The notes: generated by a model from the sequence alone, not told the origin. A DNA stretch of 64,000 bases from Comamonas serinivorans (GCF_002158865.1 NZ_CP021455.1:1096835-1160834), one strand, 5' to 3'; positions 4,618 through 42,193 are shown, numbered from the stretch's first letter. Translations and numbers: made by a program.

Positions 4618-6603
4618 TCACTCGGGTGAGGGCGTCGGATCAGGGTGCCGCCTGCAGCCGTCAGTCGCCGGCTGCAACAGGTCTTGCACGCGTGCGCGCA
4701 TGGTCTCCAGCGTCTGCGCTTCGGGGGGCATGGCCTCGCCCACGCTCAGGCCCACCGGGCTGAAGGTCCCACGCCGGAATGGCTTGGTCATGGCGCCCGT
4801 GGGTTCGATGCGCGAGAAGTAGCTGCCCCAGAGGTTGGTCAGCGCCATGGGCACCACGGGCACGCTCAGGCCGTCGGCGCGCGCCTGCTCCAGGATCTTC
4901 AGCACCCCGCTCTTGAACGCACCCAGCTCGCCGTCGCGCGTGATGGCGCCTTCGGGGAAGATGGCCAGCAGCTCGCCTTCGCGCAGCACCTGGGCGGCTT
5001 CGACGAAGGCGCGCTCGTAGGCCGCGGGGTCGTCGCGTGCGGGGGCGATGGGGATGGCCTTGGCGAGCTTGAACAGCCAGCCCAGCACGGGCACCTTGAA
5101 GATCTGGTGGTCCATGATGAAGCGGATGGGCCGCGGGCTGGCCGCCATCAGCAGCACGGCGTCGATGAAGCTGACGTGGTTGGCGATGAGCACGGCCGGA
5201 CCGTCGGCCGGGATGTGGTCACGCCCGGTGATGCGGAAGCGGTACACCAGCTTGGTGAGCACCCAGGCGTGAAAGCGCAGCCAGTACTCGGGCACCAGGA
5301 AGAAGATGTAGGCCGCCACCAGCGCATTGGCGATGCCGGTGAACAGGAAGATCTGCGGGATGGAGAAGCCGGCCTGCAGCAGCGCGCCCGCGATCACGGC
5401 CGAGGCGATCATGAACAGCGCGTTGAGGATGTTGTTGGCCGCGATGATGCGCGCGCGGTGCGAGGGCCGGGCGCGCAGCTGGATGAGCGCGTACATGGGC
5501 ACGCTGAACAGGCCGGTGAACATCGACATCAGGCCCAGGTCGGCCATCACGCGCCAGTGCGCGCCCTGTTGCAGAAAGCCGCCCACGTCGAACAGGCCAC
5601 TGGCGGGCGGCGCGGGCAGGCTGCGCGTGGCGAAGAACAGGTCGATGGCGAACACCGTCATGCCGATGGCGCCCACGGGCACCAGCCCGATCTCGACCTG
5701 GTGGCCCGACAGCTTTTCGCACAGCAGCGCCCCCACGCCGATGCCGACCGAGAACACGGCCAGCAGCAGCGAGGCGACGTGGGCGTCGCAGTGCAGCACT
5801 TCTTTGGCAAAGGCCGGAAACTGGCTGAGGAACACAGCGCCGAAGAACCACATCCACGAGATGCCCAGCAGCGAGCGGAACACGGCCAGCTGCTCGTGCG
5901 CCAGGCGCAGGTTGCGCCAGGTTTCGGTCACAGGGTTCCAGTTCACCTGCAAGCCGGGGTCGGTGGCCGGCGACACAGGGATGAACTGCGCCGCAAGCCG
6001 CCCCAGCAGGGCCAGCACCACGCACGAGATGCCCACCCATTCGGGCCCCACCTGCGGCACCACCACCAGCACCCCGCCCACCAGCTGGCCCAGCAAGATG
6101 GCGACGAAGGTGCCCATTTCGACCATGCCGTTGCCGCCCGTCAGTTCGCGCTCGGACAGGTGCTGCGGCAGGTAGGCGAACTTCACCGGGCCGAACAGGG
6201 TGGAGTGCAGGCCCATGAGGAAGGTGCACAGCAGCAGCACCGGCACGTTGGCGCTGAAGAAGCCCCAGGCCGCCAGGGCCATGATGGCCACCTCCAGCCA
6301 TTTGACGAAGCGGATCAGCGCGCGCTTTTCCAGCTTGTCGGCCAGCTGGCCGCTGGTGGCCGAGAACACCAGATAGGGCAGGATGAACAGCGCGCCGATC
6401 ACCAGGCCCGCCATGTCGGCCGGCAGCCAGCTCACCTGCAGCATGTAGGTCACCATCACGGTGAACGCGAACTTGAAGAGGTTGTCGTTCGCGGCGCCGG
6501 CAAACTGGGTCCAAAAAAACGGCGCAAAGCGGCGCTGGCCCAGCAAGGCGAACTGCCCGGAGGGCGCTTGGCCGGCCTGGGCCTGGCGGGTCGATTCGGT
6601 CAT
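4618..6603 (-). CDS. MFS lysophospholipid transporter fused to acyltransferase (LplT/Aas-like)
   Basis: Twelve-TM MFS body followed by a PlsC-type acyltransferase domain with NHVSFIDAVLL (HX4D) and FPEGAITRDG. Start trimmed to MTESTRQ. Confidence 0.8.
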   Translation of the reverse strand: MTESTRQAQAGQAPSGQFALLGQRRFAPFFWTQFAGAANDNLFKFAFTVMVTYMLQVSWLPADMAGLVIGALFILPYLVFSATSGQLADKLEKRALIRFVKWLEVAIMALAAWGFFSANVPVLLLCTFLMGLHSTLFGPVKFAYLPQHLSERELTGGNGMVEMGTFVAILLGQLVGGVLVVVPQVGPEWVGISCVVLALLGRLAAQFIPVSPATDPGLQVNWNPVTETWRNLRLAHEQLAVFRSLLGISWMWFFGAVFLSQFPAFAKEVLHCDAHVASLLLAVFSVGIGVGALLCEKLSGHQVEIGLVPVGAIGMTVFAIDLFFATRSLPAPPASGLFDVGGFLQQGAHWRVMADLGLMSMFTGLFSVPMYALIQLRARPSHRARIIAANNILNALFMIASAVIAGALLQAGFSIPQIFLFTGIANALVAAYIFFLVPEYWLRFHAWVLTKLVYRFRITGRDHIPADGPAVLIANHVSFIDAVLLMAASPRPIRFIMDHQIFKVPVLGWLFKLAKAIPIAPARDDPAAYERAFVEAAQVLREGELLAIFPEGAITRDGELGAFKSGVLKILEQARADGLSVPVVPMALTNLWGSYFSRIEPTGAMTKPFRRGTFSPVGLSVGEAMPPEAQTLETMRARVQDLLQPATDGCRRHPDPTPSPE

Positions 6604-9263: not shown

Positions 9264-9992
9264 ATGAACCCACAGAAAGCTGTGCTCGTCATCGGTGCGG
9301 GCGATGCCACGGGAGGCGCGATTGCCCGCCGCTTTGCGCGCGAGGGCTACATCGCCTGCGTCACGCGCCGCAGCGCCGACAAGCTGCAGCCCCTGGTCGA
9401 GCAGATTCGCGCCGACGGCGGCCAGGCGCATGGCTTTGGCAGCGATGCCCGCCAGGAAGAGGCCATGGCCTCGTTGGTGGCGCACATCGAGCGTGACATC
9501 GCCCCCATCGAGGTGGCGGTGTTCAACATCGGCGCCAACGTGCGCTTTCCCATCACCGAGACCACCGCGCGCGTCTACTTCAAGGTGTGGGAGATGGCCT
9601 GTTTCGCCGGCTTTCTGATGGGACGCGAGGCGGCCAAGGTGATGGTGCCGCGGGGCCGCGGCACCATTCTGTTCACCGGGGCCACGGCCAGCCTGCGGGG
9701 GCGCGACGGGTTCGCGGCCTTTGCCGGCGCCAAGCACGGCTTGCGGGCGCTGGCACAGAGCATGGCGCGCGAGCTGTGGCCGAAGGGCATCCACGTCGCC
9801 CACCCCATCATCGACGGCGCCATCGACACCGACTTCATCCAGAGCAATTTCCCCGAACGCTATGCGACCAAGGCGCAGGACGGCATCGTCAACCCCGAGC
9901 GCATCGCCGAGCTGTACTGGCAGATCCACCAGCAGCCGCGCGACGCCTGGACGCACGAAACCGAGCTGCGGCCCTGGATGGAGCCGTGGTGA
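9264..9992 (+). CDS. short-chain dehydrogenase/reductase (SDR)
   Basis: VIGAGDATGGAIARRFA Rossmann motif; NIGAN; S...Y..AK-type catalytic region (FAGAKHGLRALAQSMA). Confidence 0.85.
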   Translation: MNPQKAVLVIGAGDATGGAIARRFAREGYIACVTRRSADKLQPLVEQIRADGGQAHGFGSDARQEEAMASLVAHIERDIAPIEVAVFNIGANVRFPITETTARVYFKVWEMACFAGFLMGREAAKVMVPRGRGTILFTGATASLRGRDGFAAFAGAKHGLRALAQSMARELWPKGIHVAHPIIDGAIDTDFIQSNFPERYATKAQDGIVNPERIAELYWQIHQQPRDAWTHETELRPWMEPW

Positions 9993-27512: not shown

Positions 27513-27730
27513 GGCGAGGTCCTTGGCAAAAACCGACGGCTGACGAGGGACGGGCACGGCGGGCATGCCGTGCGCGGGTTCACTGCCCGGCCAGCTTTGC
27601 AAGCCTGGGCGGCCGAGGCTGTGCTTTAGGCGTCAGCGCAGGCCGCAGATGCCGTGCCTGGCCGGTGGCGAACGCCCGCCTGCGGCCGCGGAGCGCGCGG
27701 CGGCCAGGCGGACTAAAATCACCGGCTTCG

Positions 27731-27847
27731 CACCAAGGAGCGCTGCAGTTGGCCCAGGCCTTGCCTGGCCGGGCCTGTCAGGCTTGGTGCGGAACGTGTC
27801 GCGCCGGCCACGCCTGCGCTGGCGCGTGGTGTCAACGGCGCTCACCT
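27731..27847 (+). promoter_or_regulatory. SAH (S-adenosylhomocysteine) riboswitch in the metH leader
   Basis: CCAAGGAGCGCTGC (27733-27746) ... CAGGCTTGG (27779-27787) ... CAACGGCGCTCACC (27833-27846) match the conserved SAH-element cores (AGGAGCGCUGC / CAGGCUCGG / AACGGCGCUCAC). P1 is CCAAG/CTTGG and extra hairpins occupy the variable positions. CTCACCTG (27841-27848) can pair with CAGGTGAG (27872-27879), which contains the metH RBS. Confidence 0.75.
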
Positions 27848-27883
27848 GTTGTGTTGCTTGTCGGTTTTTTGCAGGTGAGTGTG

Positions 27884-30652
<2,769 letters not shown>

Positions 30653-30722: not shown

Positions 30723-31343
30723 TCAATCGCTGCGGCCGAATCCGGCGACAGGGTGTCGCAGGCGATCGTGGCGGTAGTCCTCGGCGACCTGTGCCCGCAG
30801 CACCTGCCAGTGCGCGCGGGACACATGCTGGCCCAGCGGCTGCCAGGCCGGGTAAGGGTTGTAGACCGCCACGTCGTCGGGGTACAGAAACGGCTGGAAC
30901 TTGAACGGGATGGGCAGCTGCGGTGCGGGCCCCAGGTTCAGCAGGGCCAGCAGACGCGCACAGCGGCCGCGAATGCGCTGCCAGTGTTCGCCCTCCACAA
31001 AGCCGCGGTGCGAGGTGTGCCAGGCCAGCTCGCGCACCACCTCGCGTTTCAAGGCTGGCGGAAAACGGTGCGCGTCGATCAGCCCATGCAGGCGCGGGTC
31101 GTCCAGCACGGCATCGGCCAGGTTCATCAGCTCGAAGTCCTGCAGCACCAGGGCGCAGAACAGCTGGTAGGCCGGGTTGCTGATGCGGTAGCCATGCTCC
31201 TCATCCAGCGTGATGGCGGCTTGGTGCGCGCCGGGGCTCACTGGCGTCAGCGTGCAGGTGTAGAAGTGCGCGAGCTGGGTGGCTGCTGGCAACTGGCCGA
31301 AGTGCAGCAACGCGTGCAGGTGGTTCAGGTCAAGCATCGGCAT
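30723..31343 (-). CDS. hypothetical protein (orphan, no recognised domain)
   Basis: 206-aa ORF, same strand and 77 nt downstream of the SPFH gene, with a 9-bp-stem hairpin (31379..31404) in the gap. Confidence 0.45.
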   Translation of the reverse strand: MPMLDLNHLHALLHFGQLPAATQLAHFYTCTLTPVSPGAHQAAITLDEEHGYRISNPAYQLFCALVLQDFELMNLADAVLDDPRLHGLIDAHRFPPALKREVVRELAWHTSHRGFVEGEHWQRIRGRCARLLALLNLGPAPQLPIPFKFQPFLYPDDVAVYNPYPAWQPLGQHVSRAHWQVLRAQVAEDYRHDRLRHPVAGFGRSD

Positions 31344-31420
31344 CCCCAGTCAGCGTCGCGCACAAAGCGTGGCAACTTGAGCGGCACGGTTCACGGTGCC
31401 GCTCATCCAGTGCTCGGCGC

Positions 31421-32581
31421 TCACCCTGGCTGGCGCAGCGTCACCAGGCCGTTCAGCACCTGATCGAGCCCGCCGACGACGGAGATCTTGTCGATGCGCT
31501 CGGCCACGCGCTCCAGCGTTTCCAGCTCCTTCATGCGCAGGGCGACGGGGTTGCCCTCCATCACCTTGGCGGTGTTCAACAGCGAACGCGTGGCCGCCGT
31601 TTCCTCGCGGCGGCGGATCACGTTGGCCTGGGCCGACTTTTCGGCCTCCACGACCTGGGCGAGGATGGTCTTCATCTCGCCGGGCAGGATGATGTCTTTC
31701 ACGCCCACGCTGTCCAGCGCCACGCCCGATTCAGCCAGGCGCTCGCGCACCTGGGCCAGCACGGCGCCATCGATGGCGGCCTTGTTTTCCAGCAACGCAT
31801 CCAGGTTCTGTTCGCCCACGGCGGCGCGCAGGCCGAATTGCAGCTCGCGGTAGACGTGGTCGGCTGGCTTGGGCATGCGCGCCAGCGCGCGCTGCACGTC
31901 GGTGAAGTGCCACACGGCCGAGAGGTTCAGTCGCAGGCCCACCTTGTCACGGGTCAGGATTTCCTGGCCATTCACCTCGGCGATCTGCGCTCGCAGGTCC
32001 ACGGTGCTCACGCTCACCTGACGGTTGAAGCGCCAGAAGCCATGCACGCCTGCCGGCAGCAGCGCTTGCATCTGGCCGTCCAGCGTGAGCACGCCAGCGT
32101 GGAACTCGGGCACCTGCACCAGCAGCACGCCGTCCAGGCCGCGCACGGCGCGCGGGCGCAGTGCCACGCTGTGCAGCTTGGCCAGCAACTCGGCGGGCAG
32201 GCGCGCGTCGGCGCTCAGGTCGACCACGTCCACGCGCTGTTCGCGCAGGCCGCGCCAGAACAGCTGGCGCGTGGACGGCGGCAGGATCTCGACCAGCACG
32301 CCGTCTTCGTGGCGCAGGCCGACCTCGGTTTCGCCCAGCACCACCTGCACGAACTCGCGGGCCAGCAGGGCCGGCTCGTGGGCTACGAAGTAGTCGGCCA
32401 GCTCGTGCTCAAAGCGCGCCGGCGCGTCCGGTTTGCCCAGCGAAAAGCGTTCCAGCGTCACATCGTCCAGGCCTGTGAACACGCGGTGCTTGCCCGGGCC
32501 AAACAGGCCGGCGAAATCGCCATCGCGCAGCAGCAGCGCGCGTTCGTGCTTTTTGACGGTGAAAATGGTGAATCCCAGCAT
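31421..32581 (-). CDS. SPFH/Band-7 (slipin-like) domain protein without TM segment
   Basis: C-terminal half: VGVKDIILPGEMK.ILAQVVEAEK.AQANVIRRREETAATRSLLNTAK is typical SPFH plus coiled-coil. N-terminal ~180 aa form an extra beta-rich region. RBS GGGAGAG. Confidence 0.75.
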   Translation of the reverse strand: MLGFTIFTVKKHERALLLRDGDFAGLFGPGKHRVFTGLDDVTLERFSLGKPDAPARFEHELADYFVAHEPALLAREFVQVVLGETEVGLRHEDGVLVEILPPSTRQLFWRGLREQRVDVVDLSADARLPAELLAKLHSVALRPRAVRGLDGVLLVQVPEFHAGVLTLDGQMQALLPAGVHGFWRFNRQVSVSTVDLRAQIAEVNGQEILTRDKVGLRLNLSAVWHFTDVQRALARMPKPADHVYRELQFGLRAAVGEQNLDALLENKAAIDGAVLAQVRERLAESGVALDSVGVKDIILPGEMKTILAQVVEAEKSAQANVIRRREETAATRSLLNTAKVMEGNPVALRMKELETLERVAERIDKISVVGGLDQVLNGLVTLRQPG

Positions 32582-33312: not shown

Positions 33313-34965
33313 ATGAAACCCATTCACGTCATCACCTTCCTGGGCACCCAGCTGGACAGCGGCAACGGTGCCGGCCGCTGGGAGAAGTGGCGGCCCACCG
33401 TGGCGCTGACCCAGCACGAGGACATGGAGGTCGCGCGGCTGGACCTGCTGCTGACCGGGCCCAGCCACCGGGCGCTGGCCGAGCGCGTGCGCGCCGACAT
33501 CGGCACGGTGTCGCCCGCCACCGAGGTCGTGCTGCACGAGTTGGCCGTGGACGATCCCTGGGACTTCGACGTCGTCTACACGCAGCTGTTCGATTGGGCC
33601 CGCGCGCAGGCCTTCGATACCGAGGCCGCGCAGTACTGGGCGCACATCACCACCGGCACGCATGTGGCGCAGATCTGCCTGTTCCTGCTGACCGAGTCGC
33701 GCGTGCTGCCCGGGGTGCTGTGCCAGACCTCGCCGCCCAAGCGGCAGCGCGAGGGCGCGGCCGGTGCCTACACGCTGATCGACCTCGACCTCTCGCGCTA
33801 CGACGCCATCGCCCAGCGCCATGCGGCCGACCAGCGCGATGCAGTGGCCTTCCTGAAAAGCGGCATCGCCACGCGCAATGCGCGCTTCAACGCGCTCATC
33901 GACGAGGTCGAGCGCGTGGCCGTGCGCTCCACCGCGCCGGTGCTGTTCGTGGGGCCCACGGGCGCGGGCAAGTCCTTCCTGGCCCGGCGCATGCACGAGC
34001 TGAAGAAATCGCGCCACCAGATCAACGGCGCCTTCGTCGAAGTCAACTGCGCCACGCTGCGTGGCGACGGCGCGGCCTCGACGCTGTTCGGCCACAAGCG
34101 CGGTGCTTTCACCGGCGCCGCCACCGACCGGCCCGGCCTGCTGCGCGCCGCCGATGGTGGGCTGCTGTTCCTCGACGAAATCGGCGAGCTGGGGGCCGAC
34201 GAGCAGGCCATGCTGCTCATGGCCATCGAAGACAAGCGCTTCTACCCCCTGGGTTCGGACCGCGAGGTGACCAGCGACTTTCAGCTGGTGGCGGGCACCA
34301 ACCGCGACCTGCGCGCCGAGGTCGCCGCGGGGCGGTTTCGCGAAGACCTGTTCTCGCGCATCAACCTGTGGACCTACGAGCTGCCTGGCCTGGCGGGCCG
34401 GCCTGAGGACATCGAACCCAACGTCGACTACCTGCTCACCCGCCATGCGCAAGCCTCGCGCCGCGCGGCCCGCTTCAACGTCGAAGCGCGCCGCGCCTAC
34501 CTGCGCTTTGCGCAAAGCGGCGAAGCGCTGTGGCGCGGCAATTTCCGCGACCTGTATGCCAGCGTGACGCGCCTGGCGACCCTGGCCGAGGGCGGGCGCA
34601 TCACCGAGCCGCTGGTGGTGGCTGAGATCAAACGGCTGCGCTGGATGTGGACGCGCGACAGCGCGGTGGCGGCGCCCGGCGCGCGCGCCTCGGGGGGCTC
34701 GCCGGGGGCGATGGCGGTCGATGCGGCGAGCGTGGACCTGGCCGACTTCTACGACGAAGCGGCCCTGGAGCAGATCGACCTGTTCGACCGCGTGCAGCTG
34801 CAGGGCGTCATCGCGGTGTGCCAGCGCTCGCGCACGCTGTCGGACGCGGGGCGCCAGCTGTACCAGGCCTCGCGGGCGCAACGCGCGGCGTTGAACGATT
34901 CGGACCGCCTGCGCAAGTACCTGGCCAAGTTCAACCTGAGCTGGGACCGCGTCAGCACACGATGA
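33313..34965 (+). CDS. rtcR: sigma-54-dependent transcriptional regulator RtcR (CARF-AAA+-HTH)
   Basis: Collinear over the full length with E. coli RtcR as I recall it: WEKWRPTV N-terminal region, HITTGTHVAQICLFLL, GPTGAGKSFLARR, GAFTGA loop, FLDEIGELG, and C-terminal DRLRKYLAKF HTH. Confidence 0.85.
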   Translation: MKPIHVITFLGTQLDSGNGAGRWEKWRPTVALTQHEDMEVARLDLLLTGPSHRALAERVRADIGTVSPATEVVLHELAVDDPWDFDVVYTQLFDWARAQAFDTEAAQYWAHITTGTHVAQICLFLLTESRVLPGVLCQTSPPKRQREGAAGAYTLIDLDLSRYDAIAQRHAADQRDAVAFLKSGIATRNARFNALIDEVERVAVRSTAPVLFVGPTGAGKSFLARRMHELKKSRHQINGAFVEVNCATLRGDGAASTLFGHKRGAFTGAATDRPGLLRAADGGLLFLDEIGELGADEQAMLLMAIEDKRFYPLGSDREVTSDFQLVAGTNRDLRAEVAAGRFREDLFSRINLWTYELPGLAGRPEDIEPNVDYLLTRHAQASRRAARFNVEARRAYLRFAQSGEALWRGNFRDLYASVTRLATLAEGGRITEPLVVAEIKRLRWMWTRDSAVAAPGARASGGSPGAMAVDAASVDLADFYDEAALEQIDLFDRVQLQGVIAVCQRSRTLSDAGRQLYQASRAQRAALNDSDRLRKYLAKFNLSWDRVSTR

Positions 34966-35133: not shown

Positions 35134-35802
35134 ATGGCGCAGTACATCGAGGTCATTGGACAGGCCAGCGTGAGCGAAGTGGCCGTGGAGCAGCGCGTGG
35201 CGCTGACGGTGTCGCACCGCGGCAAGGGCGGTGGCATGTCGGACAAGGTGGTGGCGCACAAGGCCACGCAGCAGCGTGAGCGGGTGATCGCCACGCTGCT
35301 GGCCCACGGCATGCGGGAGCACGAATTGCATGAGGGCGGCATGGACAGCGGCACCTGGCACTTCAAGCGCAAGCGCGAGGTGCACCACAGCCACCGCATC
35401 CTGCTGATCTGCGAGGACGACGCGCGCCTGTTTGCGGCCCTCGAGGCCCTGGCGCCGCTGCAGGACGAGGGCGAGCTTGACTTGCAACTGGACATGCTGG
35501 ACGCCCGCTACGAGGTGCCGGCCGGTGCGCTGAGCGGGGCGCAGCAGGCGGCGGTGGCGCATGCCCGTGAGCATGCGAATGGCCTGGCGCAGGCTGCCGG
35601 CGTGGCGCTGGGCGCGGTGGTGCAGGTGCAAGAGCTGGCGCCGGCGCGGGAGCGTTCGGGTGCCTATGGCGAGTCCTGGTATGGCTTGGCCGCCGCAGGC
35701 GGCGCGGCTGCGGCACCGGCCATGACCCTCTTGGCGAGTAACCAGCGCACGCGCACCTTGAGCTACCGCGTGCGCTTTGCGCTGCAGCGGGCTGTGCCCT
35801 GA
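35134..35802 (+). CDS. SIMPL (DUF541)-like protein, no signal peptide
   Basis: YIEVIGQASVSEVAVEQRVALTV...A...A...A..LAQAAGVALGAVVQVQE pattern. RBS GGAGAGGGAG lies 6 nt upstream of the ATG at 35134. Confidence 0.55.
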   Translation: MAQYIEVIGQASVSEVAVEQRVALTVSHRGKGGGMSDKVVAHKATQQRERVIATLLAHGMREHELHEGGMDSGTWHFKRKREVHHSHRILLICEDDARLFAALEALAPLQDEGELDLQLDMLDARYEVPAGALSGAQQAAVAHAREHANGLAQAAGVALGAVVQVQELAPARERSGAYGESWYGLAAAGGAAAAPAMTLLASNQRTRTLSYRVRFALQRAVP

Positions 35803-35883
35803 CGCGCGTCGTTCGCCGCAACGCCTGGGCCGCGGTGGCCTGAATGTCGGTCCGACCGTGCACTGGGCAGGACGTGGGGCCAG

Positions 35884-35916
35884 TGAATCGCCTGCAACGC
35901 CCCTGCAGACGATTCA
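35884..35916 (+). promoter_or_regulatory. candidate enhancer (UAS) inverted repeat upstream of P2
   Basis: TGAATCG-N19-CGATTCA lies 110-140 bp upstream of P2. It shares the GATTCA core with sites upstream of P1 and P3. Confidence 0.35.
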
Positions 35917-36025
35917 TGGGCGGGCGTAGAGTTCGCATCGAAAGCGATACAGTGGGATCGTGTTCGGCGGTCATGGTGGCGTGCAGCCCTGCTGTCGCCC
36001 TGGGGTGAAGCGGGATGGGCCGAAC

Positions 36026-36041
36026 TGGCACGGCCGTTGCG
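36026..36041 (+). promoter_or_regulatory. sigma-54 promoter P2
   Basis: TGGCACGGCCGTTGCG is a perfect TGGCAC-N5-TTGC. The predicted start lies a few nt before the stem of tRNA-like RNA 1 (36059). Confidence 0.75.
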
Positions 36042-36058
36042 AAGGATGAGGTGAACGT

Positions 36059-36146
36059 GGGCCCAGGTCTGGGGTGGCGCAAAGCGAGCGCGTCGGACTT
36101 GAATCCGAAGGGTGCTGGTGCAAGTCCAGCCCCCAGACCTGGGCCC
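36059..36146 (+). ncRNA. tRNA-like / Y-RNA-like cloverleaf RNA 1
   Basis: Perfect 16-bp stem GGGCCCAGGTCTGGGG (36059-74) / CCCCAGACCTGGGCCC (36131-46). It encloses TG, D-like arm GCGC-AAAGCGA-GCGC, G, anticodon-like arm TCGGA-CTTGAA-TCCGA, AGGGT, and T-like arm GCTGG-TGCAAGT-CCAGC. There is no CCA end. Confidence 0.65.
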
Positions 36147-36292
36147 GCGAAACCCGGGGGCGCGACGGCGCGAGGCAGGCCTTGACGCGGCGGCCGTGTC
36201 GGCAAGGGTGCAGCGAGAAGCGGCTACCAGGCCGGTTGCCACGCATCGCAGCCCGTCGGCCAGCCCGACCGGCAGGGGATGAGGTCAGGTGT

Positions 36293-36373
36293 GCAACGGT
36301 CTGGCGCAGTTCAAGGAGAACGCCCGACCATGCATCGGGAAGGTGCTGGACAAGCCAGCCGCCAGACCGTTGC
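36293..36373 (+). ncRNA. tRNA-like / Y-RNA-like cloverleaf RNA 2 (paralogue of RNA 1)
   Basis: Perfect 14-bp stem GCAACGGTCTGGCG / CGCCAGACCGTTGC. It encloses CA, GTTC-AAGGA-GAAC, G, CCCGA-CCATGCA-TCGGG, AAGGT and GCTGG-ACAAG-CCAGC. The topology matches RNA 1, with compensatory changes in the D-like and anticodon-like stems. Confidence 0.65.
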
Positions 36374-36422
36374 GCATGGGCCAGTCCCCGTCCCGATCCA
36401 CACGAACACAGGGAGAGCGGCC

Positions 36423-39320
36423 ATGGGCCAGCACGACGAAGAGCACTCACCGGACGCCGGTGAGCACCCGGTGCCGCCGGCGCATGCGGCATCCGGGCTT
36501 GCCCAGGCGAACCCGGGCTGGGCAGCCGGCCAGCTTGCACGCGCCCGTGCGGCTTTGGCACAGGCACAGGTACAGCGGGACCCGTCAGGGCCCGACGCGG
36601 CCGGCGCTGCGTCATCCGCGGATACCGACGCTGCAGGCCACGCCGTGGCGCGTGCGCTGGCCAAGGTGAATGCCTGGCGCCAGGCCTTGGCCGGCATGGC
36701 CAGTGGCGAGCTGCAGGTGGGGTCGCGCACGCCGCTGCGCAACGTGGCGGCCTGGCTCACGCCGAATGTGTTGCACGGCGGATTCGCCTCGGGCCAGCTG
36801 ATGGCCGGGGGGCGCGCGCAAGCACACGAGACGCACTGGCTGGCGCAACTGGCGGCCGGTCAGCCGCTGGGCAGCACGCCGACCGACTGTGCCCGGATGG
36901 CCACGCTGGCGGCACAGCCCGTGGACCGCAGCACGCTGCCCCAGAAGCTGGACCGCACGCCGCTGAACGACTGGTTCCTGACCGAGGCGGGCCTGCAGCA
37001 GCTGATGCAGTGGCTGGACGACGGCCGCTGGCGCATCGCCGTGCCCGAGGAGGGCGCCTTGCTGGTGGTGGCCTGGCTGCTGAGGCAGGGGCATGACACC
37101 TCGGCGGCCCGCCTGTTGGACACCCTGTCGCCCTACTGGCACCGCGTTCGCTTTTACCCGCAGCCCGCTGCGACGCCCATGCCGGCGCTCGACCGCGTGA
37201 GCCTGCGCAGCGCGCAGGACGTGATGGCGCAGTTGAACCAGCTGCAGACGCCGCCCGCGGTGCTGGCCCAGCACCAAGCCATCCACGTGTGGCGCCCCTT
37301 GCTCGACGAGCTGGTGCTGCTGTGGCTGCAGGCCGTGCCCGGCGCGCTGCACGGCCCTGACGCTGCCGCGGCCCATGGCGAATCCGGGCGAGGTGCCGAC
37401 GGCGCCGTGACGGATGCGCTGCCGCGCCTGCGTGCCGGCACGCGCGAGGCCGAAGGCGGCTTGCCCCTGGCCGAGCCCGACGCCGACTGGCGGCAGCAGG
37501 CGGCGGCCTGGCGCCTGCGGGCGCGCGAGGCCGAGGCGCAGCACACGCGCAGCCGGGCGCACCGCAAGCCCGGCTCGCACGTGGCGCAGTTGTGGGCCAT
37601 GCTGGACCAGGTGCTGCAAGGTCAGGCCCTGAGCGAGGCACAGCGCCGCCGGCTGCGCTTTGTGCTGGCGTGCCAGGTCAGCGCCCATGGCGTGCCAGGC
37701 GATGCGAGGCACCACACCTGGCGCGCCGCGCAACGGGCGCAGACCGACACCGTGTGGCGCGCCCACTGGGCGTACGCACTGGCCGCGCGCGTGCAGGCGC
37801 AGGGCCCCTACGCGCTGGGCGATGGCCTGCCGGATCTGGACACCGCGCTGCAAGCTGCCACGGCGCAAGAGGCACAACAACATGCGCACCTGCCCGAAGG
37901 CACCGTGGTCTGGCCCAGCCTGCGCCGCAAGCTGCGCCGCGCCCACTTGGCCACCGTGCCGCAGCTGGTGCAAGCCGGCATCGTGCCGTCGAGCGAGGTG
38001 CTGGCCAGCGTGCTGCCCGGCACCACGGGCGCACAGCTGGCGCGCACCATGCCCGATGCGGCCAGCGCGCGGCTGCTGGGCGCGCTGTGGCGTGCGTTTC
38101 GCGGGCGACGCTCGGTGCTGCTGCTGAACCACGAGTCGCAGGTGCGCTTTCACGAGCTGCCCTGGGTGCTGCGCTTGCAGCAGCACGCCTGCGTGCCGGC
38201 GACGGCCGCCGGGACCGAGGGCGATTCGGCACATCGCTGGGACATGGCCGGCCTGGCGCGCAGCCAGGCGTTGGCGCAGCTGGATGCGGCCGCGCGCCTG
38301 GCGCTGACGCAATTCCCGCAATCGGCCTTCCCGAACCCGCTGCTGTGGGAGCTTCGCGCGCTGGCCGAGCAGGGTGGCTGGCAGCCGCCGTGGGTCGAAG
38401 ACATCGCGGCCGACATCTTCATGGGCAGCTTTGGGCCCAAGTTCGGGCAGGCCGTGCACGACGCGCTGCCCTGGTTGCAGGGCAGCCTGTATGCGCAGCA
38501 TTTCCAGCTCGACCTGGAGGCGCTGCGCCTGGCCATGGCGCCGGCCGTGGCCTGCCACGCGGCCTTTCAGCGTTACGCCGAAACGCCAGCGGGCTCACCC
38601 GGCAACCCCGCGGCCAAGCGCGAACAACAGGCCTTGCTGCAGCGCTATCACGCGGCGCCCGACCTGCTGGTGGCGCACCTGCGTGCGCGCACGGGCTGGT
38701 CGGCCGACGCCCGCGGCGTGGGCGCGAATGGCGCCGTCATCGAGCAGATGGGCCTGGTCAGCACGGCCAACTTCGCGCCGCTGGCGCAGCGCTTTGGCTG
38801 GGGCGTGGCCGGTGCCGGTTTGCGCGATGCCACGGCCCAGGCGCGCGAGCTCCAGGGGTGGGCGCAGGCCGCACGCACGGGCTTCGAGCGGCTGTGCGCG
38901 GGGCTGGACCTGGGCGTGCGCGAAGCCGGCGCCATGCTGGACAAGCCGCCAACCCAGATCCAGGCGACAAACCCGGCGGATGCCCATGCGGCAGCGACAG
39001 AAGCCCAGGCCGCCGACCGCCTGCTGGCCGAGCGCGTGCGCCGGGCCGCCACCAGCTGGCGCCAGGTCGTGCTGCTGCTGAGCCTGCTGCCCGCCGAGCA
39101 GCAGCGCGCCAACCTGCTGGGCATGCAGCGCCACCTCGCGGCCTGTGACACCCCCGCCAGCCGGGGCGTGACGCGCGCCCTGGCGCCCCAGCTGGCCGAC
39201 CTGATGGCCTGTGTGCAAGGCCAGGCGCGCGACGCCGGTCGGCCACCGTTCCACGGCTGGACCCAGCCAGGGCAGCGGGGCGTGCTGTTCACCCTGCGCC
39301 AGGGCCTGAAGGCCGGGTGA
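36423..39320 (+). CDS. large orphan protein (965 aa), predicted all-alpha, no recognised domain
   Basis: Longest frame in the region. RBS GGGAGAG upstream of the ATG at 36423. Ala/Leu/Gln/Trp-rich composition, versus an Arg/Gly-rich antisense ORF. Lies downstream of sigma-54 promoter P2 and the two tRNA-like RNAs. Confidence 0.6.
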   Translation: MGQHDEEHSPDAGEHPVPPAHAASGLAQANPGWAAGQLARARAALAQAQVQRDPSGPDAAGAASSADTDAAGHAVARALAKVNAWRQALAGMASGELQVGSRTPLRNVAAWLTPNVLHGGFASGQLMAGGRAQAHETHWLAQLAAGQPLGSTPTDCARMATLAAQPVDRSTLPQKLDRTPLNDWFLTEAGLQQLMQWLDDGRWRIAVPEEGALLVVAWLLRQGHDTSAARLLDTLSPYWHRVRFYPQPAATPMPALDRVSLRSAQDVMAQLNQLQTPPAVLAQHQAIHVWRPLLDELVLLWLQAVPGALHGPDAAAAHGESGRGADGAVTDALPRLRAGTREAEGGLPLAEPDADWRQQAAAWRLRAREAEAQHTRSRAHRKPGSHVAQLWAMLDQVLQGQALSEAQRRRLRFVLACQVSAHGVPGDARHHTWRAAQRAQTDTVWRAHWAYALAARVQAQGPYALGDGLPDLDTALQAATAQEAQQHAHLPEGTVVWPSLRRKLRRAHLATVPQLVQAGIVPSSEVLASVLPGTTGAQLARTMPDAASARLLGALWRAFRGRRSVLLLNHESQVRFHELPWVLRLQQHACVPATAAGTEGDSAHRWDMAGLARSQALAQLDAAARLALTQFPQSAFPNPLLWELRALAEQGGWQPPWVEDIAADIFMGSFGPKFGQAVHDALPWLQGSLYAQHFQLDLEALRLAMAPAVACHAAFQRYAETPAGSPGNPAAKREQQALLQRYHAAPDLLVAHLRARTGWSADARGVGANGAVIEQMGLVSTANFAPLAQRFGWGVAGAGLRDATAQARELQGWAQAARTGFERLCAGLDLGVREAGAMLDKPPTQIQATNPADAHAAATEAQAADRLLAERVRRAATSWRQVVLLLSLLPAEQQRANLLGMQRHLAACDTPASRGVTRALAPQLADLMACVQGQARDAGRPPFHGWTQPGQRGVLFTLRQGLKAG

Positions 39321-39710
39321 GCAGGTCGGGTGAGGTCAGGTGAAGCCAGCGGGGCCATGGGGCCCCATCTTCCAGGTTGGCCCGAATGGTGACCGTGGGT
39401 CTGGGTGCCGGTGCTGCCGCCCCAGGCGTTCGCTGTGGGCGCCTGGCGGACTGGCGCCGAGGAACGGAGGAGCTTGCGCGACAATCCGGCATCCGGTCCG
39501 GGCGAGGCTCGCTAGGACATGGCCATGGCGCGCGGCGGTCAGCACGCGGCGGTGTCGGCCCCGCAGCCGCGCGATCCCGGTGGTCGGGTGCAAGTGCCCT
39601 GTCGGCTTGCGTTCCACGCCAACAGGCCTGCTGCCGTGCCTCGTGCCATGTCAACCGTTGCTTGACGGTCGGCGGGCCCCGTGCCCACGCCGTGTTGTTC
39701 AGAAGTACCC

Positions 39711-40454
39711 ATGCCTTTACGCATCGACGAAGCCATCACCCAGCTGGATCACGGCTGGCTCAGCCATTTGAAATCGCAGGGTTACGGCGGCGATGCCTTG
39801 CGCCAGGCGATCGACCTGGTGCTGTACGCCCAACAGCAGGCGGCGGCGCGCAACAGCGCCGAGTTCAAGGCCGCCATCGCGCGCGTCAACCACCTGGTGG
39901 GGGCGGGCATCGCGTGTGACAACAACGGCGACTACCTGTACACGGCCGAGTGGCGCGACCCGGCTTGCGCCGGGCTGGGCTTCGCCATCGAATACGCGGC
40001 CGACCCGGCCAGCTGGCGGGCCGAGTTCCGCATGCCCGGCTGCTGGCCGCACACCGTGGACAACCTCGACATCACCGACACCCGCGCTGTGGACCACGAC
40101 TTTGCGCTCTGGCTGGCGCGCGCCAGTGCCCGCCATTTCACGCACCTGATCGAACGCCAGCTGCCCGAAGGCGAAGCACTGCGCGCGCCCTGTACGGCGG
40201 CCGTGCGGGCCGGCACCTGGGCCGAATTCGTGTGCCTGCACCCACTGCAACCCGTGGCCCGCCTGGGGCACGAGCGGCTGGAGCAGGCCGCCTGGTCGGC
40301 CCAATACCCCAGTGCCGCCCAGCGCGAGTTGCAGGCCCGCTTCGATGTGCAGAGCGCCTTGCTGCTGCGCTTGATCGTGGTTCAGCAGGCAGCATGGGCT
40401 TGGCATGAAGAGTATGGCGACAATCGCGATGACGATTCAACGGGAAGGCATTGA
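39711..40454 (+). CDS. orphan protein (247 aa), no recognised domain
   Basis: ORF between the 965-aa gene and rtcA on the same strand. The last ~15 codons and the stop lie in repeat copy R16. Confidence 0.5.
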   Translation: MPLRIDEAITQLDHGWLSHLKSQGYGGDALRQAIDLVLYAQQQAAARNSAEFKAAIARVNHLVGAGIACDNNGDYLYTAEWRDPACAGLGFAIEYAADPASWRAEFRMPGCWPHTVDNLDITDTRAVDHDFALWLARASARHFTHLIERQLPEGEALRAPCTAAVRAGTWAEFVCLHPLQPVARLGHERLEQAAWSAQYPSAAQRELQARFDVQSALLLRLIVVQQAAWAWHEEYGDNRDDDSTGRH

Positions 40455-40460
40455 TACTCC
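40410..40460. repeat. nested-palindrome repeat family, copy R16
   Basis: GAGTATGGCG ... ATCGCGATGACGATTCAACGGGAA ... TTGATACTCC. Supplies the last codons and the stop of the 247-aa ORF. Confidence 0.65.
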
Positions 40461-40814
40461 ATTTGATGTGGCGCTTGCTGAGGGCTGCTTGCCCGACACC
40501 GGAAGGCTGGCGTCGACGCAGGGACATGACGCGTGGCCAGCGGTGCATGGGCTCGCCAGCCGCCCGCACAGCGCCCCCAACCCGCTGACTGGGCGTCCTG
40601 ATGCAGCAGGCCTGGCTCGACCTGCCCGTGCTCTTTCGCCTGCATGCGCAGGCGCGTGGCCAACAGGTGGCGCAGCCCGAGCGGGCCGATGGGGTGTTCG
40701 CCATCCAGGGCACGGCCAGCGCGCAGCCTCACACCGTCCGAGACGGACCGCATCCGGGCCGATTGCCTGTGAAGGCGGGCTTGCAAGGGGCGCTGCATGG
40801 ATCGCTGGCGCGCT

Positions 40815-40828
40815 GGATGAATCAAGCC
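40815..40828 (-). promoter_or_regulatory. candidate UAS upstream of P3
   Basis: The reverse complement reads GGCTTGATTCATCC, nearly identical to the 33281 site and ~110 bp upstream of P3. Weaker CTTGATCCGG (40886-95) and TTGATTTGG (40919-27) sites follow. Confidence 0.35.
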
Positions 40829-40934
40829 AGTTTGGCTTGCGGTGGCTGAGCCGTGGCGAGGCGCAGGCGCCCTCGACGCCAAGTGCTTGATCCGGCAAGG
40901 GTTTGCGCGGCTCGCCTGTTGATTTGGCGGGGCC

Positions 40935-40950
40935 TGGCACGCCGCGTGCA
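40935..40950 (+). promoter_or_regulatory. sigma-54 promoter P3 (rtcA)
   Basis: TGGCACGCCGCGTGCA has correct GG/GC spacing and lies 38 nt upstream of the rtcA ATG. Confidence 0.65.
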
Positions 40951-40987
40951 ACGAGGATGGCCACACACAACTCAACTGGGAGCACAC

Positions 40988-42193
40988 ATGCCAACCGACG
41001 ACCAGGTGGAGGCGAAGCCGCGTCACCGTGACCCAGCTCGCACGGCCACCGCCGCAGACACCAAAAGCGTGACCGGCGCAGCGCAGACGGGCCGTGGCGC
41101 AGCCATCGAGATCGATGGCTCGCAGGGCGAGGGCGGCGGGCAGATCCTGCGCACGGCGCTGGCCTTGTCCATGATCACCGGCCAGCCGCTGCACCTGCGC
41201 GCCATCCGCGCCAAGCGGCCCAAGCCCGGGCTCATGCGCCAGCACCTGATGTGCGTGCAGGCGGCCGCGCAGGTCAGCGGGGCCCACATCAGCGGGGCCG
41301 AGCTGGGGGCCACCGAGTTGCGCTTCGCGCCGGGCCCGGTGCGGGCGAGCGCCTACGAATTTGCCATGGCCAGCGCAGGCAGCTGCATGCTGGTGCTGCA
41401 GACCGTGCTGCCGGCGTTGATGCTGGCCGATGCCCCCAGCACGCTGGTGCTGCGGGGCGGCACGCACAACCCCATGGCGCCCAGCTTCCACTTTGTGCGC
41501 GATGCCTTTGCGCCGCTGGTGCAGCGCCTGGGCGCCGGCCTGACGCTGCAGCTGCAGCGGCTGGGCTTTTACCCCGCAGGCGGTGGCGAGGTCACGGCCA
41601 CCATCACGCCTGCGGCCCGCCTGACCCCGTTCGACCTGACCGAGCGTGGCGAGCTGCAGCAGGGCGATGCTCTGTGCCTGACGCCGGGGCTGTCGGGGTC
41701 GATCGCGCGCCGCGAGCTGACGGCGCTGGGCCAGGCCATGGGCTGGGGCGAGGACCGCTTGCGCTTTGGCGAGGCCAGGCAGCACGAGGGGCCGGGCAAT
41801 GCCTTGATCGCCCGCCTGCGCTACGCCCACGTGACCGAGGTGTTCGTCGAGCTTGGGGCCCGCAACCTGTCGTCGGAGCAGGTGGCCGGCAAGCTGGTGC
41901 AGGCCATCCGGGCGTTTCAACGCCGGCCAGGTGCCGCGGTGGGCCCACACTTGGCCGACCAGCTGGTGCTGCTGCAGGCCCTGGCCGTGTGGCAGGCCGG
42001 ACGGACCGGCAGCCAGGCGGATGCGCCCCACGCCGATGTGCCCCAGGCGGATGTGCCGCAAGCACGCTTCTCGTGCAGCGAGGTGACCGAGCACTTGCGC
42101 ACCAACTGCGTGGTGATCGAACGCTTTCTGCCCGTGCGCTGCACGCTGACCCAGGGCCCTGTGTCCCGGGTGACGGTGCGCTGGGCGGGGTGA
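40988..42193 (+). CDS. rtcA: RNA 3'-terminal phosphate cyclase RtcA
   Basis: IEIDGSQGEGGGQILRTALALS..TG.P..L..IRA.R..PGL..QHL. RBS GGGAG upstream of the ATG at 40988. N-terminal ~35-aa extension and a 15-nt x3 in-frame repeat near the C-terminus. Confidence 0.85.
   Translation: MPTDDQVEAKPRHRDPARTATAADTKSVTGAAQTGRGAAIEIDGSQGEGGGQILRTALALSMITGQPLHLRAIRAKRPKPGLMRQHLMCVQAAAQVSGAHISGAELGATELRFAPGPVRASAYEFAMASAGSCMLVLQTVLPALMLADAPSTLVLRGGTHNPMAPSFHFVRDAFAPLVQRLGAGLTLQLQRLGFYPAGGGEVTATITPAARLTPFDLTERGELQQGDALCLTPGLSGSIARRELTALGQAMGWGEDRLRFGEARQHEGPGNALIARLRYAHVTEVFVELGARNLSSEQVAGKLVQAIRAFQRRPGAAVGPHLADQLVLLQALAVWQAGRTGSQADAPHADVPQADVPQARFSCSEVTEHLRTNCVVIERFLPVRCTLTQGPVSRVTVRWAG
42017..42061 (+). 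repeat. 15-nt x3 in-frame tandem repeat inside rtcA
   Basis: GCGGATGCGCCCCAC / GCCGATGTGCCCCAG / GCGGATGTGCCGCAA, encoding ADAPH-ADVPQ-ADVPQ. Confidence 0.7.

Follow-up and report, generated by a model that had tools for sequence, protein, structure and literature searches.

In the genome of Comamonas serinivorans, two consecutive open reading frames (ORFs), encoding proteins of 965 and 247 amino acids (aa), follow a pair of tRNA-like RNAs (TLs) at a locus with rtcR upstream and rtcA downstream. They occupy positions 36,423-40,454 of the window analyzed here, that is, the whole stretch of 64,000 nucleotides (nt) GCF_002158865.1 NZ_CP021455.1:1096835-1160834. Both ORFs lay intact on the + strand, as a first-pass annotation of this DNA had described, and their products were 100% identical to CCO03_04750 and CCO03_04755. 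We propose that the large ORF and the TLs form a previously undescribed two-part module; a limited full-text literature search did not find the RNA-protein pair described.

Both TLs and both ORFs are predicted to be transcribed from one sigma-54-type promoter that lies 27 nt 5' of the first TL (Table 1), and comparable sites were present upstream of other regulon genes in the window and in the related metagenomic contigs L001 and L093. When the + strand was scanned from the promoter through the end of the small ORF, no terminator-like site was detected. The two ORFs are separated by a gap of 390 nt. No match to Rfam or to R1, our covariance model of the TL family, was found in the gap, and the gap aligned poorly with its counterparts in L093 and L001 apart from the final ~20 nt ahead of the small ORF's ATG; the idea that it contains a structured RNA or a promoter was rejected.

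Table 1 Features of the rtc-linked locus in the C. serinivorans window
Feature	Positions	Strand	Basis
rtcR, sigma-54-dependent activator with RtcR/CARF-type N-domain	33313-34965	+	Pfam RtcR 6e-76, Sigma54_activat 5e-49
SIMPL/DUF541 gene between rtcR and TL promoter	35134-35802	+	Pfam
Sigma-54-type promoter TGGCACGGCCGTTGCG (TGGCAC-N5-TTGC), predicted for TL-TL-ORF1-ORF2 transcript	36026-36041	+	Read from sequence
TL1, tRNA-like RNA, full cloverleaf, 6-nt 'anticodon' loop (CUUGAA)	36068-36139	+	ARAGORN, Rfam, R1
TL2, more divergent tRNA-like RNA, short T-loop, C33	36300-36368	+	R1
965-aa protein CCO03_04750	36423-39320	+	Intact ORF; ATG preceded by GGGAGAG
247-aa protein CCO03_04755	39711-40454	+	Intact ORF
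Relic, C-terminal ~46 codons of third gene (726-732 aa)	40619-40769	+	tblastn with L001 726-aa product
Second sigma-54-type promoter TGGCACGCCGCGTGCA, ahead of rtcA	40935-40950	+	
rtcA, RNA 3'-terminal phosphate cyclase	40988-42193	+	Pfam RTC 5e-74, NCBIfam equivalog 2e-111

The large protein and its family

The large protein is a member of a widespread, uncharacterised bacterial family. A word-indexed protein search returned 39 clusters of relatives, most of them 745-822 aa long and 30-37% identical, with Streptomyces, Kribbella, Massilia, Polyangia and Planctomycetes among the named sources. When GTDB was scanned with one genome per species, at least 537 species genomes from about ten phyla encoded a confirmed relative; the groups were Actinomycetota, Burkholderiales, Planctomycetota, Verrucomicrobiota, Acidobacteriota, Chloroflexota, Cyanobacteria, Armatimonadota, Myxococcota and Rhodothermales. 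Hundreds of bacteria carry the family, from soil and aquatic species to antibiotic producers, and it is also found on Streptomyces plasmids. A viral origin was rejected, as no relatives were found among the 2.9 million viral contigs of IMG/VR. The term 'orphan', applied at first to both proteins, thus does not hold for the 965-aa protein and is nearly right for the 247-aa protein, which has eight close relatives.

Coding status, which had been considered unsupported by homology, is now backed by intact orthologues of both ORFs in the same gene order in metagenomic contigs L001, L002, L093 and L094, and by 50 columns of the family alignment that are invariant across phyla and spread over the full length. 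The ratio of nonsynonymous to synonymous substitution rates (dN/dS, NG86), also named earlier as a check, was 0.38-0.45 for the large and 0.30-0.68 for the small ORF, dS probably being underestimated at this codon bias; in both ORFs the GC content at third codon positions was 0.82-0.88, compared with ~0.5 at second positions. The RefSeq start of CCO03_04750 lies 74 codons downstream of ATG 36423 and yields 891 aa, with 36423-36644 being lost. This start is probably too far downstream, and ATG 36423 is favoured because four orthologues share the N-terminus M-x-Q-H/S-D/E and because the family-wide motif ANPGYAxGQLARA falls upstream of the RefSeq start.

The composition of the 965-aa protein (Ala 19.6%, Leu 12.2%, Gln 8.4%, Trp 3.1%) agrees with the first description of it as rich in these four residues, and its isoelectric point (pI) is 9.4, close to the family median of ~9. 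Recurrent family motifs include GSRTP, W-x-T-x-x-V-x-x-GGFA-x-G, PEEGAL, F-R-R-R-R-S-L-L-L, FP-x4-PN, AADIFMG, NG-x-x-IEQ and AYAWRQ. Ten Arg, among them those of F-x-R-R-R-R-S, and nine Asp/Glu residues are invariant or nearly so, Asn and Tyr are also among the invariants, and no conserved His, Cys or Lys was found in the family alignment. The basic pI and the Arg-rich invariant motifs, to which R178, R456, R560, R562 and R563 belong, may, weakly, fit nucleic-acid binding.

Neither protein contained a recognisable motif, as had been noted before: Pfam, NCBIfam, PADLOC and PDB-sequence searches with either one gave no match. When the 39 family members were scanned singly against Pfam, NCBIfam and PADLOC at E<=1, no match was reported, TROVE, vWA and RtcB of Pfam included, and the RtcB domain PF01139, with its His/Cys metal and GMP site, had no match in the large protein. 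In hhalign comparisons the family profile reached a probability of 0.2% against genuine Ro60 from a related locus and 0.6% against the RtcB of locus L035. PADLOC-DB at E<=0.1 returned 0 families for both ORFs, for the 726-aa protein encoded farther downstream in L001 and for the SIMPL protein. The gene is labelled 'hypothetical protein' in RefSeq, and no Pfam or NCBIfam model covers the family.

An AlphaFold2 model built on the family alignment (predicted local distance difference test score, pLDDT, 87.4; predicted template-modelling score, pTM, 0.85) was almost entirely helical, in keeping with the all-helical look read from the sequence, with a small beta element at residues 114-126; in appearance the model resembles an alpha-solenoid. 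No solved fold related to the large protein was found. A profile search of PDB at E<=10 gave no match, and the weak top matches of a Foldseek search against PDB were karyopherin-beta proteins (Kap95/importin-beta; E 0.09, probability 0.18, template-modelling score about 0.1), which are non-significant. Nothing better than E 0.09 and no nuclease or toxin fold appeared, and the TROVE-like ring, ligase or nuclease fold for which this comparison had originally been suggested was not matched.

The tRNA-like RNAs and their linkage to the family gene

The TLs are a distinct family of structured cloverleaf RNAs and not housekeeping tRNAs. The upstream RNAs were called tRNA by ARAGORN and Rfam (49-69 bits). 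In the window, TL1 was reported by ARAGORN as 'tRNA-???' with a 2-nt anticodon and scored 52.8 bits with the Rfam tRNA model and 74.4 bits with R1, while TL2 matched R1 over its full length (54.6 bits, E 3e-13). An Rfam search of 35700-41300, even at E<=1, returned only RF00005 tRNA, the presence of a YrlA model in Rfam not having been checked. The equivalent second TL copy of L001 lies at 9897-9963. TL sequences of different loci are homologous to one another, and R1 gave them 67-93 bits, compared with 25-58 bits for the housekeeping tRNAs of the same loci. In an alignment of 37 diverse copies 99.7% of cells were paired, with compensatory changes at 17 of the 21 pairs; the covariation of 0.574 compares with 0.167 for shuffled alignments (0/500) and with at most 0.115 when the partners were slid.

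The TLs have the dimensions of tRNA, with stems of 7/4/5/5 base pairs and a 5-nt variable loop, and keep U8, A14, C32/U33, G53 and C61. A pyrimidine occupies position 1 (U1-A72 or C1-G72), and the discriminator base varies. Actinobacterial copies have a remodelled elbow, with the T-loop GGCGGAA and a D-loop without GG. The terminal CCA is encoded in the TLs of Variovorax, Massilia, Planctomycetota, Cyanobacteria and Acidobacteriota; it is not encoded in the window copies or in most actinobacterial ones.

A role in decoding was rejected on the lengths of the anticodon loop, 5-7 nt across the family (see Table 1 for the window copies), together with the neutrality of the anticodon. Among 62 actinobacterial TLs, the anticodon columns showed an entropy of 1.3-1.9 bits and most other columns ~0, the D- and T-loops varying somewhat. 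In 54 loci the anticodon diverged per site at about, or slightly above, the rate of fourfold synonymous sites of the adjacent gene (0.26 vs 0.23, 0.51 vs 0.36), whereas the rest of the TL diverged by 0.02-0.10 per site, the body thus evolving 5-10 times slower than the anticodon. Since the body is strongly selected and the anticodon is essentially free, the TLs would not be decoders, and they failed a decoding-competence test that asks for a 7-nt loop, U33, R37 and a maintained anticodon. An arms-race decoy under diversifying selection on the anticodon is likewise unsupported, the rate being close to or slightly above synonymous. Annotation pipelines probably call the TLs odd tRNAs, and this accounts for a group of peculiar 'tRNA' annotations whose anticodons are impossible or random.

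TL and protein are near-obligately linked. Of 89 loci, 68 had a tRNA-like gene that ARAGORN placed directly upstream of the family gene and on its strand; R1 did so in 75 of 87, spread over about ten phyla, often as a tandem array (1-4 copies in all). For the reverse test, metagenomes were searched with an IUPAC pattern of the non-actinobacterial TL, and of the 62 contigs retrieved the 56 with at least 500 nt downstream were scored; a family gene lay directly 3' of the TL in 55. The sole exception was an orphan TL in L112 (9205-9277, - strand; R1 90.6 bits) without a family gene downstream. All-against-all clustering of the ORFs from 88 loci revealed no conserved protein neighbour outside Streptomyces synteny, and the neighbourhoods of distant homologues had no protein in common. 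A genomic island at a tRNA attachment site was ruled out: the TLs are a family of their own and lie 0-2 nt before the start codon, and neither an integrase nor any conserved neighbour is present.

The first in-frame start codon follows the TL 3' end by 0-2 nt in 54 of 74 loci, mainly actinobacterial ones, and also at L157 (2759-2836), and in a few loci the A of the encoded CCA doubles as the A of the ATG. In a RefSeq plasmid record the 'hypothetical protein' coding sequence assigned by PGAP begins 2 nt after the TL. This spacing means that RNA and mRNA are made together, and it implies either a leaderless mRNA after 3' processing or a start codon occluded by the TL.

The rtc context and the accessory genes

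In the window and in L001 the order is rtcR - TL - TL - large gene - small gene - (726-732-aa gene) - rtcA, the third gene being only a relic in the window. L093 shares this order from the large gene onward; the contig begins there, so rtcR and the TLs were not seen in it. The L001 orthologue of rtcR is 84% identical and adjoins the same module, with a divergent Ro60 gene beside it behind a sigma-54 site of its own. Further sigma-54 sites were located ahead of the 732-aa gene in L093 (4485) and of rtcA in L001 (16366) and L093 (6867). L001 has no SIMPL/DUF541 gene at the position corresponding to window 35134-35802. In the window, rtcA (401 aa) starts at ATG 40988 with GGGAG upstream, and its N-terminal extension of ~45 aa is absent from the Pfam/NCBIfam core. 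RtcB or Ro60 was not found elsewhere in the window.

Rtc-linked family members occur in two further groups. In the Pirellulaceae locus L035 (1-8346) the order is rtcR | rsr - rtcB - TL - TL - family gene, and in the Chloracidobacterium locus L021 (1-8382) DUF6847 and two ORFs are followed by rtcB - rtcA - TL - family gene, the N-terminal part of a divergent rtcR lying at the locus edge. The rtcB gene of L021 carries an intein. The three rtc-linked groups were polyphyletic in a rough neighbour-joining tree; as they are not each other's closest relatives, recruitment to RtcR operons appears to have occurred repeatedly, in three phyla, and the link to Rtc suggested by the first-pass annotation is strengthened accordingly. 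Since the family stands beside Rsr and RtcB in L035 and beside RtcB and RtcA in L021, it adds to these proteins and does not replace them. Other RNA-related neighbours were seen in Massilia L004 (6223-14502), with an EF-G paralogue and two stand-alone EFG_IV mini-proteins upstream of the TL and family gene and, downstream and encoded on the other strand, an HD-AAA_33 kinase and an RNA ligase.

The 247-aa protein contains five Cys and nine Trp, matching the several residues of each kind noticed at first, and is acidic (pI 5.5), in contrast to the basic large protein. Its eight close relatives (53-79% identity) all belong to the same operon type. Only its own orthologues came up, both when 5.8 billion proteins were searched with a profile and when HMMER was run exhaustively on 1.84 billion representatives; three weak distant matches (Big_9, Flg_new and cadherin-like repetitive surface proteins) were discarded as spurious repeat artefacts, and fold comparison gave no enzyme-like match. 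As the protein is restricted to the rtc-linked Comamonadaceae-type subfamily, it reads as a lineage-restricted accessory, and the most economical guess is that it would be a clade-specific modulator of the large protein.

L001 and L093 retain an intact third gene (726-732 aa) between the small ORF and rtcA. C. serinivorans has lost it except for ~46 codons; this relic matches the L001 product in two segments (47% across 30 aa, 56% across 16 aa; tblastn E 1e-4). A homologue of the third gene, 30% identical, adjoins the family gene in Acidobacteriota L080 (10469-8439, - strand).

Elsewhere in the window, a third sigma-54-type site, TGGCACGGCGTCTGCA, lies at ~33150 on the - strand and points away from rtcR, facing an SPFH/Band-7 gene (31421-32581, - strand) and a 206-aa ORF in the region 30723-32581. 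Because the equivalent L001 site faces Ro60, the RtcR regulon may here include the SPFH protein. An S-adenosylhomocysteine riboswitch (27729-27850, + strand) is located ahead of a metH-type gene (27665-30652 region), and a Burkholderia Bcj11-type small RNA maps to 5794-5915 (- strand).

Interpretation and comparison with known systems

From genomic association, covariation and predicted structure we infer physical binding of RNA and protein, a role for the TLs and a role in tRNA damage, in the following form, to which we give about an even chance. The large protein would recognise the tRNA body (acceptor, D and T arms, elbow) and not the anticodon, and the co-transcribed TLs would be its dedicated ligands, serving as a stable partner in a ribonucleoprotein (RNP), as a decoy or pseudo-substrate, or as an autoregulatory operator comparable to the thrS leader that mimics tRNA-Thr. 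RtcR is activated by 5' tRNA halves with a 2',3'-cyclic phosphate end (PMC7790460). Because the C. serinivorans module lies behind an RtcR/sigma-54 promoter, it would be made when such broken tRNAs accumulate, and the large protein would then most likely bind, sequester or present damaged tRNAs alongside RtcA. The acidic 247-aa protein possibly modulates the basic large protein in this clade. The RNA-linked role suggested for the large protein at first sight is supported by the tight TL coupling in both directions of the test.

Several observations weigh against this interpretation. Twelve of the 87 loci, in two clades of the protein tree, have no adjacent TL and yet keep every invariant residue; hidden divergent TLs were sought in these loci and none was found, so the TL is dispensable in cis for the core function. 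Start codons directly beside the TL, like the neutrality of the anticodon, are explained just as well by a processing signal that acts purely in cis. Only ~5 of ~150 loci examined are rtc-linked, and since the other ~145 have no rtc neighbour, the rtc context is one use of an autonomous RNA-protein module. A basic pI is weak evidence of nucleic-acid binding, the large protein has no recognisable RNA-binding domain, and the nine acidic residues that are invariant or nearly so could be the mark of an enzyme instead of a binder.

A wider reading, possible but on balance doubtful, is that the module represents an unnoticed, widespread RNP in which non-decoding tRNA mimics and an ~800-aa protein watch or buffer the tRNA pool. 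Such an RNP might sense anticodon-loop nucleases or divert them as a decoy, or hold broken tRNAs for RtcB/RtcA, and in some lineages it would be an RtcR-induced arm of the tRNA-damage response alongside Ro60-Y RNA.

Among the alternatives, the one that survives best, unlikely as it is, holds that the TLs are only cis-acting expression signals, excised by RNase P and RNase Z to leave a leaderless or stabilised mRNA, and that the protein has nothing to do with tRNA. It would account for start codons so close to the TL that a Shine-Dalgarno sequence has no room, for a nearly neutral anticodon in a loop of variable length, and for the loss of the TL in two protein clades. A generic signal, however, would not be exclusive to one protein family over about ten phyla, nor so in 55 of 56 reverse loci. 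The TL is almost invariant in sequence and not in shape alone, including C32/U33 and the anticodon stem, and tandem arrays of 2-4 copies, the CCA encoded in some lineages and the orphan TL also speak against a mere signal. A remodelled tRNA elbow is expected to weaken recognition by RNase P and not to favour it, as the actinobacterial copies with T-loop GGCGGAA and no D-loop GG should do. Repeated recruitment to rtc operons would, in addition, lack an explanation.

We regard as improbable a type III toxin-antitoxin (TA) or defence-like system, in which the large protein would attack tRNA or translation, the TLs would be a pseudo-substrate antitoxin, and the 247-aa protein an extra inhibitor or immunity factor. 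The structured RNA units, one to four in tandem, that immediately precede the gene recall ToxIN, the contexts are variable and include conflict-rich soil bacteria and Streptomyces plasmids, and one family locus adjoins a ParE toxin gene. Against these stand the empty PADLOC and viral-contig searches, the absence of any nuclease or toxin domain or fold among the matches of the large protein, the lack of a terminator between RNA and gene, and co-transcription with the repair genes rtcB and rtcA, which would be odd for a toxin.

Even less can be said for the idea that the two proteins functionally take the place of Rsr and RtcB, with the large one serving as a Ro60-like scaffold and the small one acting as an enzyme that processes or senses RNA ends, which we consider highly improbable. 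It goes back to the first-pass annotation, which saw them in the operon slots where Rsr and RtcB normally sit. Positionally this is correct for C. serinivorans: the window has no RtcB or Ro60, the upstream tRNA mimics are placed like yrlA in Salmonella (PMC4201824), and the modelled large protein looks alpha-solenoid-like. In other phyla, however, the family shares the operon with the proteins it was thought to stand in for, following rsr and rtcB in L035 and rtcB and rtcA in L021, and in L001 Ro60 is found beside the same rtcR. The hhalign probabilities are minimal, none of the 39 members matched TROVE, vWA or RtcB in Pfam, the family has no conserved His or Cys, and the small protein has no enzyme-like fold match.

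The faintest of these possibilities makes the large protein an enzyme with the TL as its substrate, charged or used in some other way (e.g. an aminoacyl-tRNA-dependent transferase or 3'-end modifier): a full cloverleaf with a 7-base-pair acceptor stem, CCA encoded in several lineages and whole-length conservation with invariant Glu, Asp, Arg, Asn and Tyr typical of enzymes would suit it, but the window and most actinobacterial copies lack CCA, position 1 is a pyrimidine, the discriminator varies, the actinobacterial T-loop is non-canonical, and neither similarity to a known transferase or synthetase fold nor conserved biosynthetic neighbours were found.

The module could reveal a new bacterial way to recognise, protect or exploit tRNA shape. 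Besides the Y RNAs, it gives another, unrelated case of a tRNA mimic paired with a protein, one that plugs into the same RtcR circuit in three phyla while mostly living on its own. Little is understood so far of the Rtc and Rsr RNA-repair operons, and the function of the tRNA-like part of Y RNA is an open question; for YrlA, it has been suggested by the authors of the RtcR work that this part might compete with the anticodon nuclease (PMC7790460). The analysis supplies a testable pair, i.e. a family present in at least 537 species genomes without a Pfam model and a covariance model for its RNA, and offers corrections to the start codon and the 'hypothetical protein' label of CCO03_04750.

A close parallel is the Ro60/Rsr-Y RNA system, in which a non-coding tRNA mimic also adjoins the gene of a large helical protein, some genomes put both under RtcR/sigma-54 control with rtcB and rtcA, and the RNA is tRNA-like enough for tRNA-recognising tools and enzymes (PMC4201824, PMC7790460). 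Unlike Ro60/Rsr, the TL-linked protein has no TROVE HEAT-repeat ring or vWA domain detectable by hhalign or fold comparison, and the module lies mostly outside rtc operons and co-occurs with Rsr in L035. Unlike the Y RNA YrlA, the TL is a complete cloverleaf with an anticodon arm and has no Ro-binding stem.

Type III TA systems (ToxIN, CptIN) likewise have tandem structured RNA units directly upstream of, and co-transcribed with, the partner gene. The TL unit is, however, a 72-nt cloverleaf, presumably cut by RNase P and RNase Z and not by the partner protein; the latter is helical and 750-965 aa long, whereas the TA toxin is an endoribonuclease of ~170 aa with the ToxN/AbiQ fold, and the TL module differs further in having no PADLOC/Pfam match and no intervening terminator. 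Like the operator of E. coli thrS, which is bound by ThrRS, a tRNA-like structure by the start codon would permit feedback control, but thrS mimics only the anticodon arm and does so in an anticodon-dependent manner, whereas the TL keeps the whole cloverleaf, leaves the anticodon free and can occur in tandem copies. tmRNA-SmpB also combines a dedicated bacterial protein with a tRNA-mimicking RNA in a translation or RNA stress response; SmpB is small and of known fold, and tmRNA has an mRNA domain and is not a co-transcribed leader of smpB, and no similarity between tmRNA-SmpB and the TL module was detected. With karyopherin-beta and exportin-t, finally, the TL-linked protein shares its large, all-helical build, although the best Foldseek matches to this group were non-significant and homology is not claimed. 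Exportin-t reads the body and the ends of tRNA, not the anticodon.

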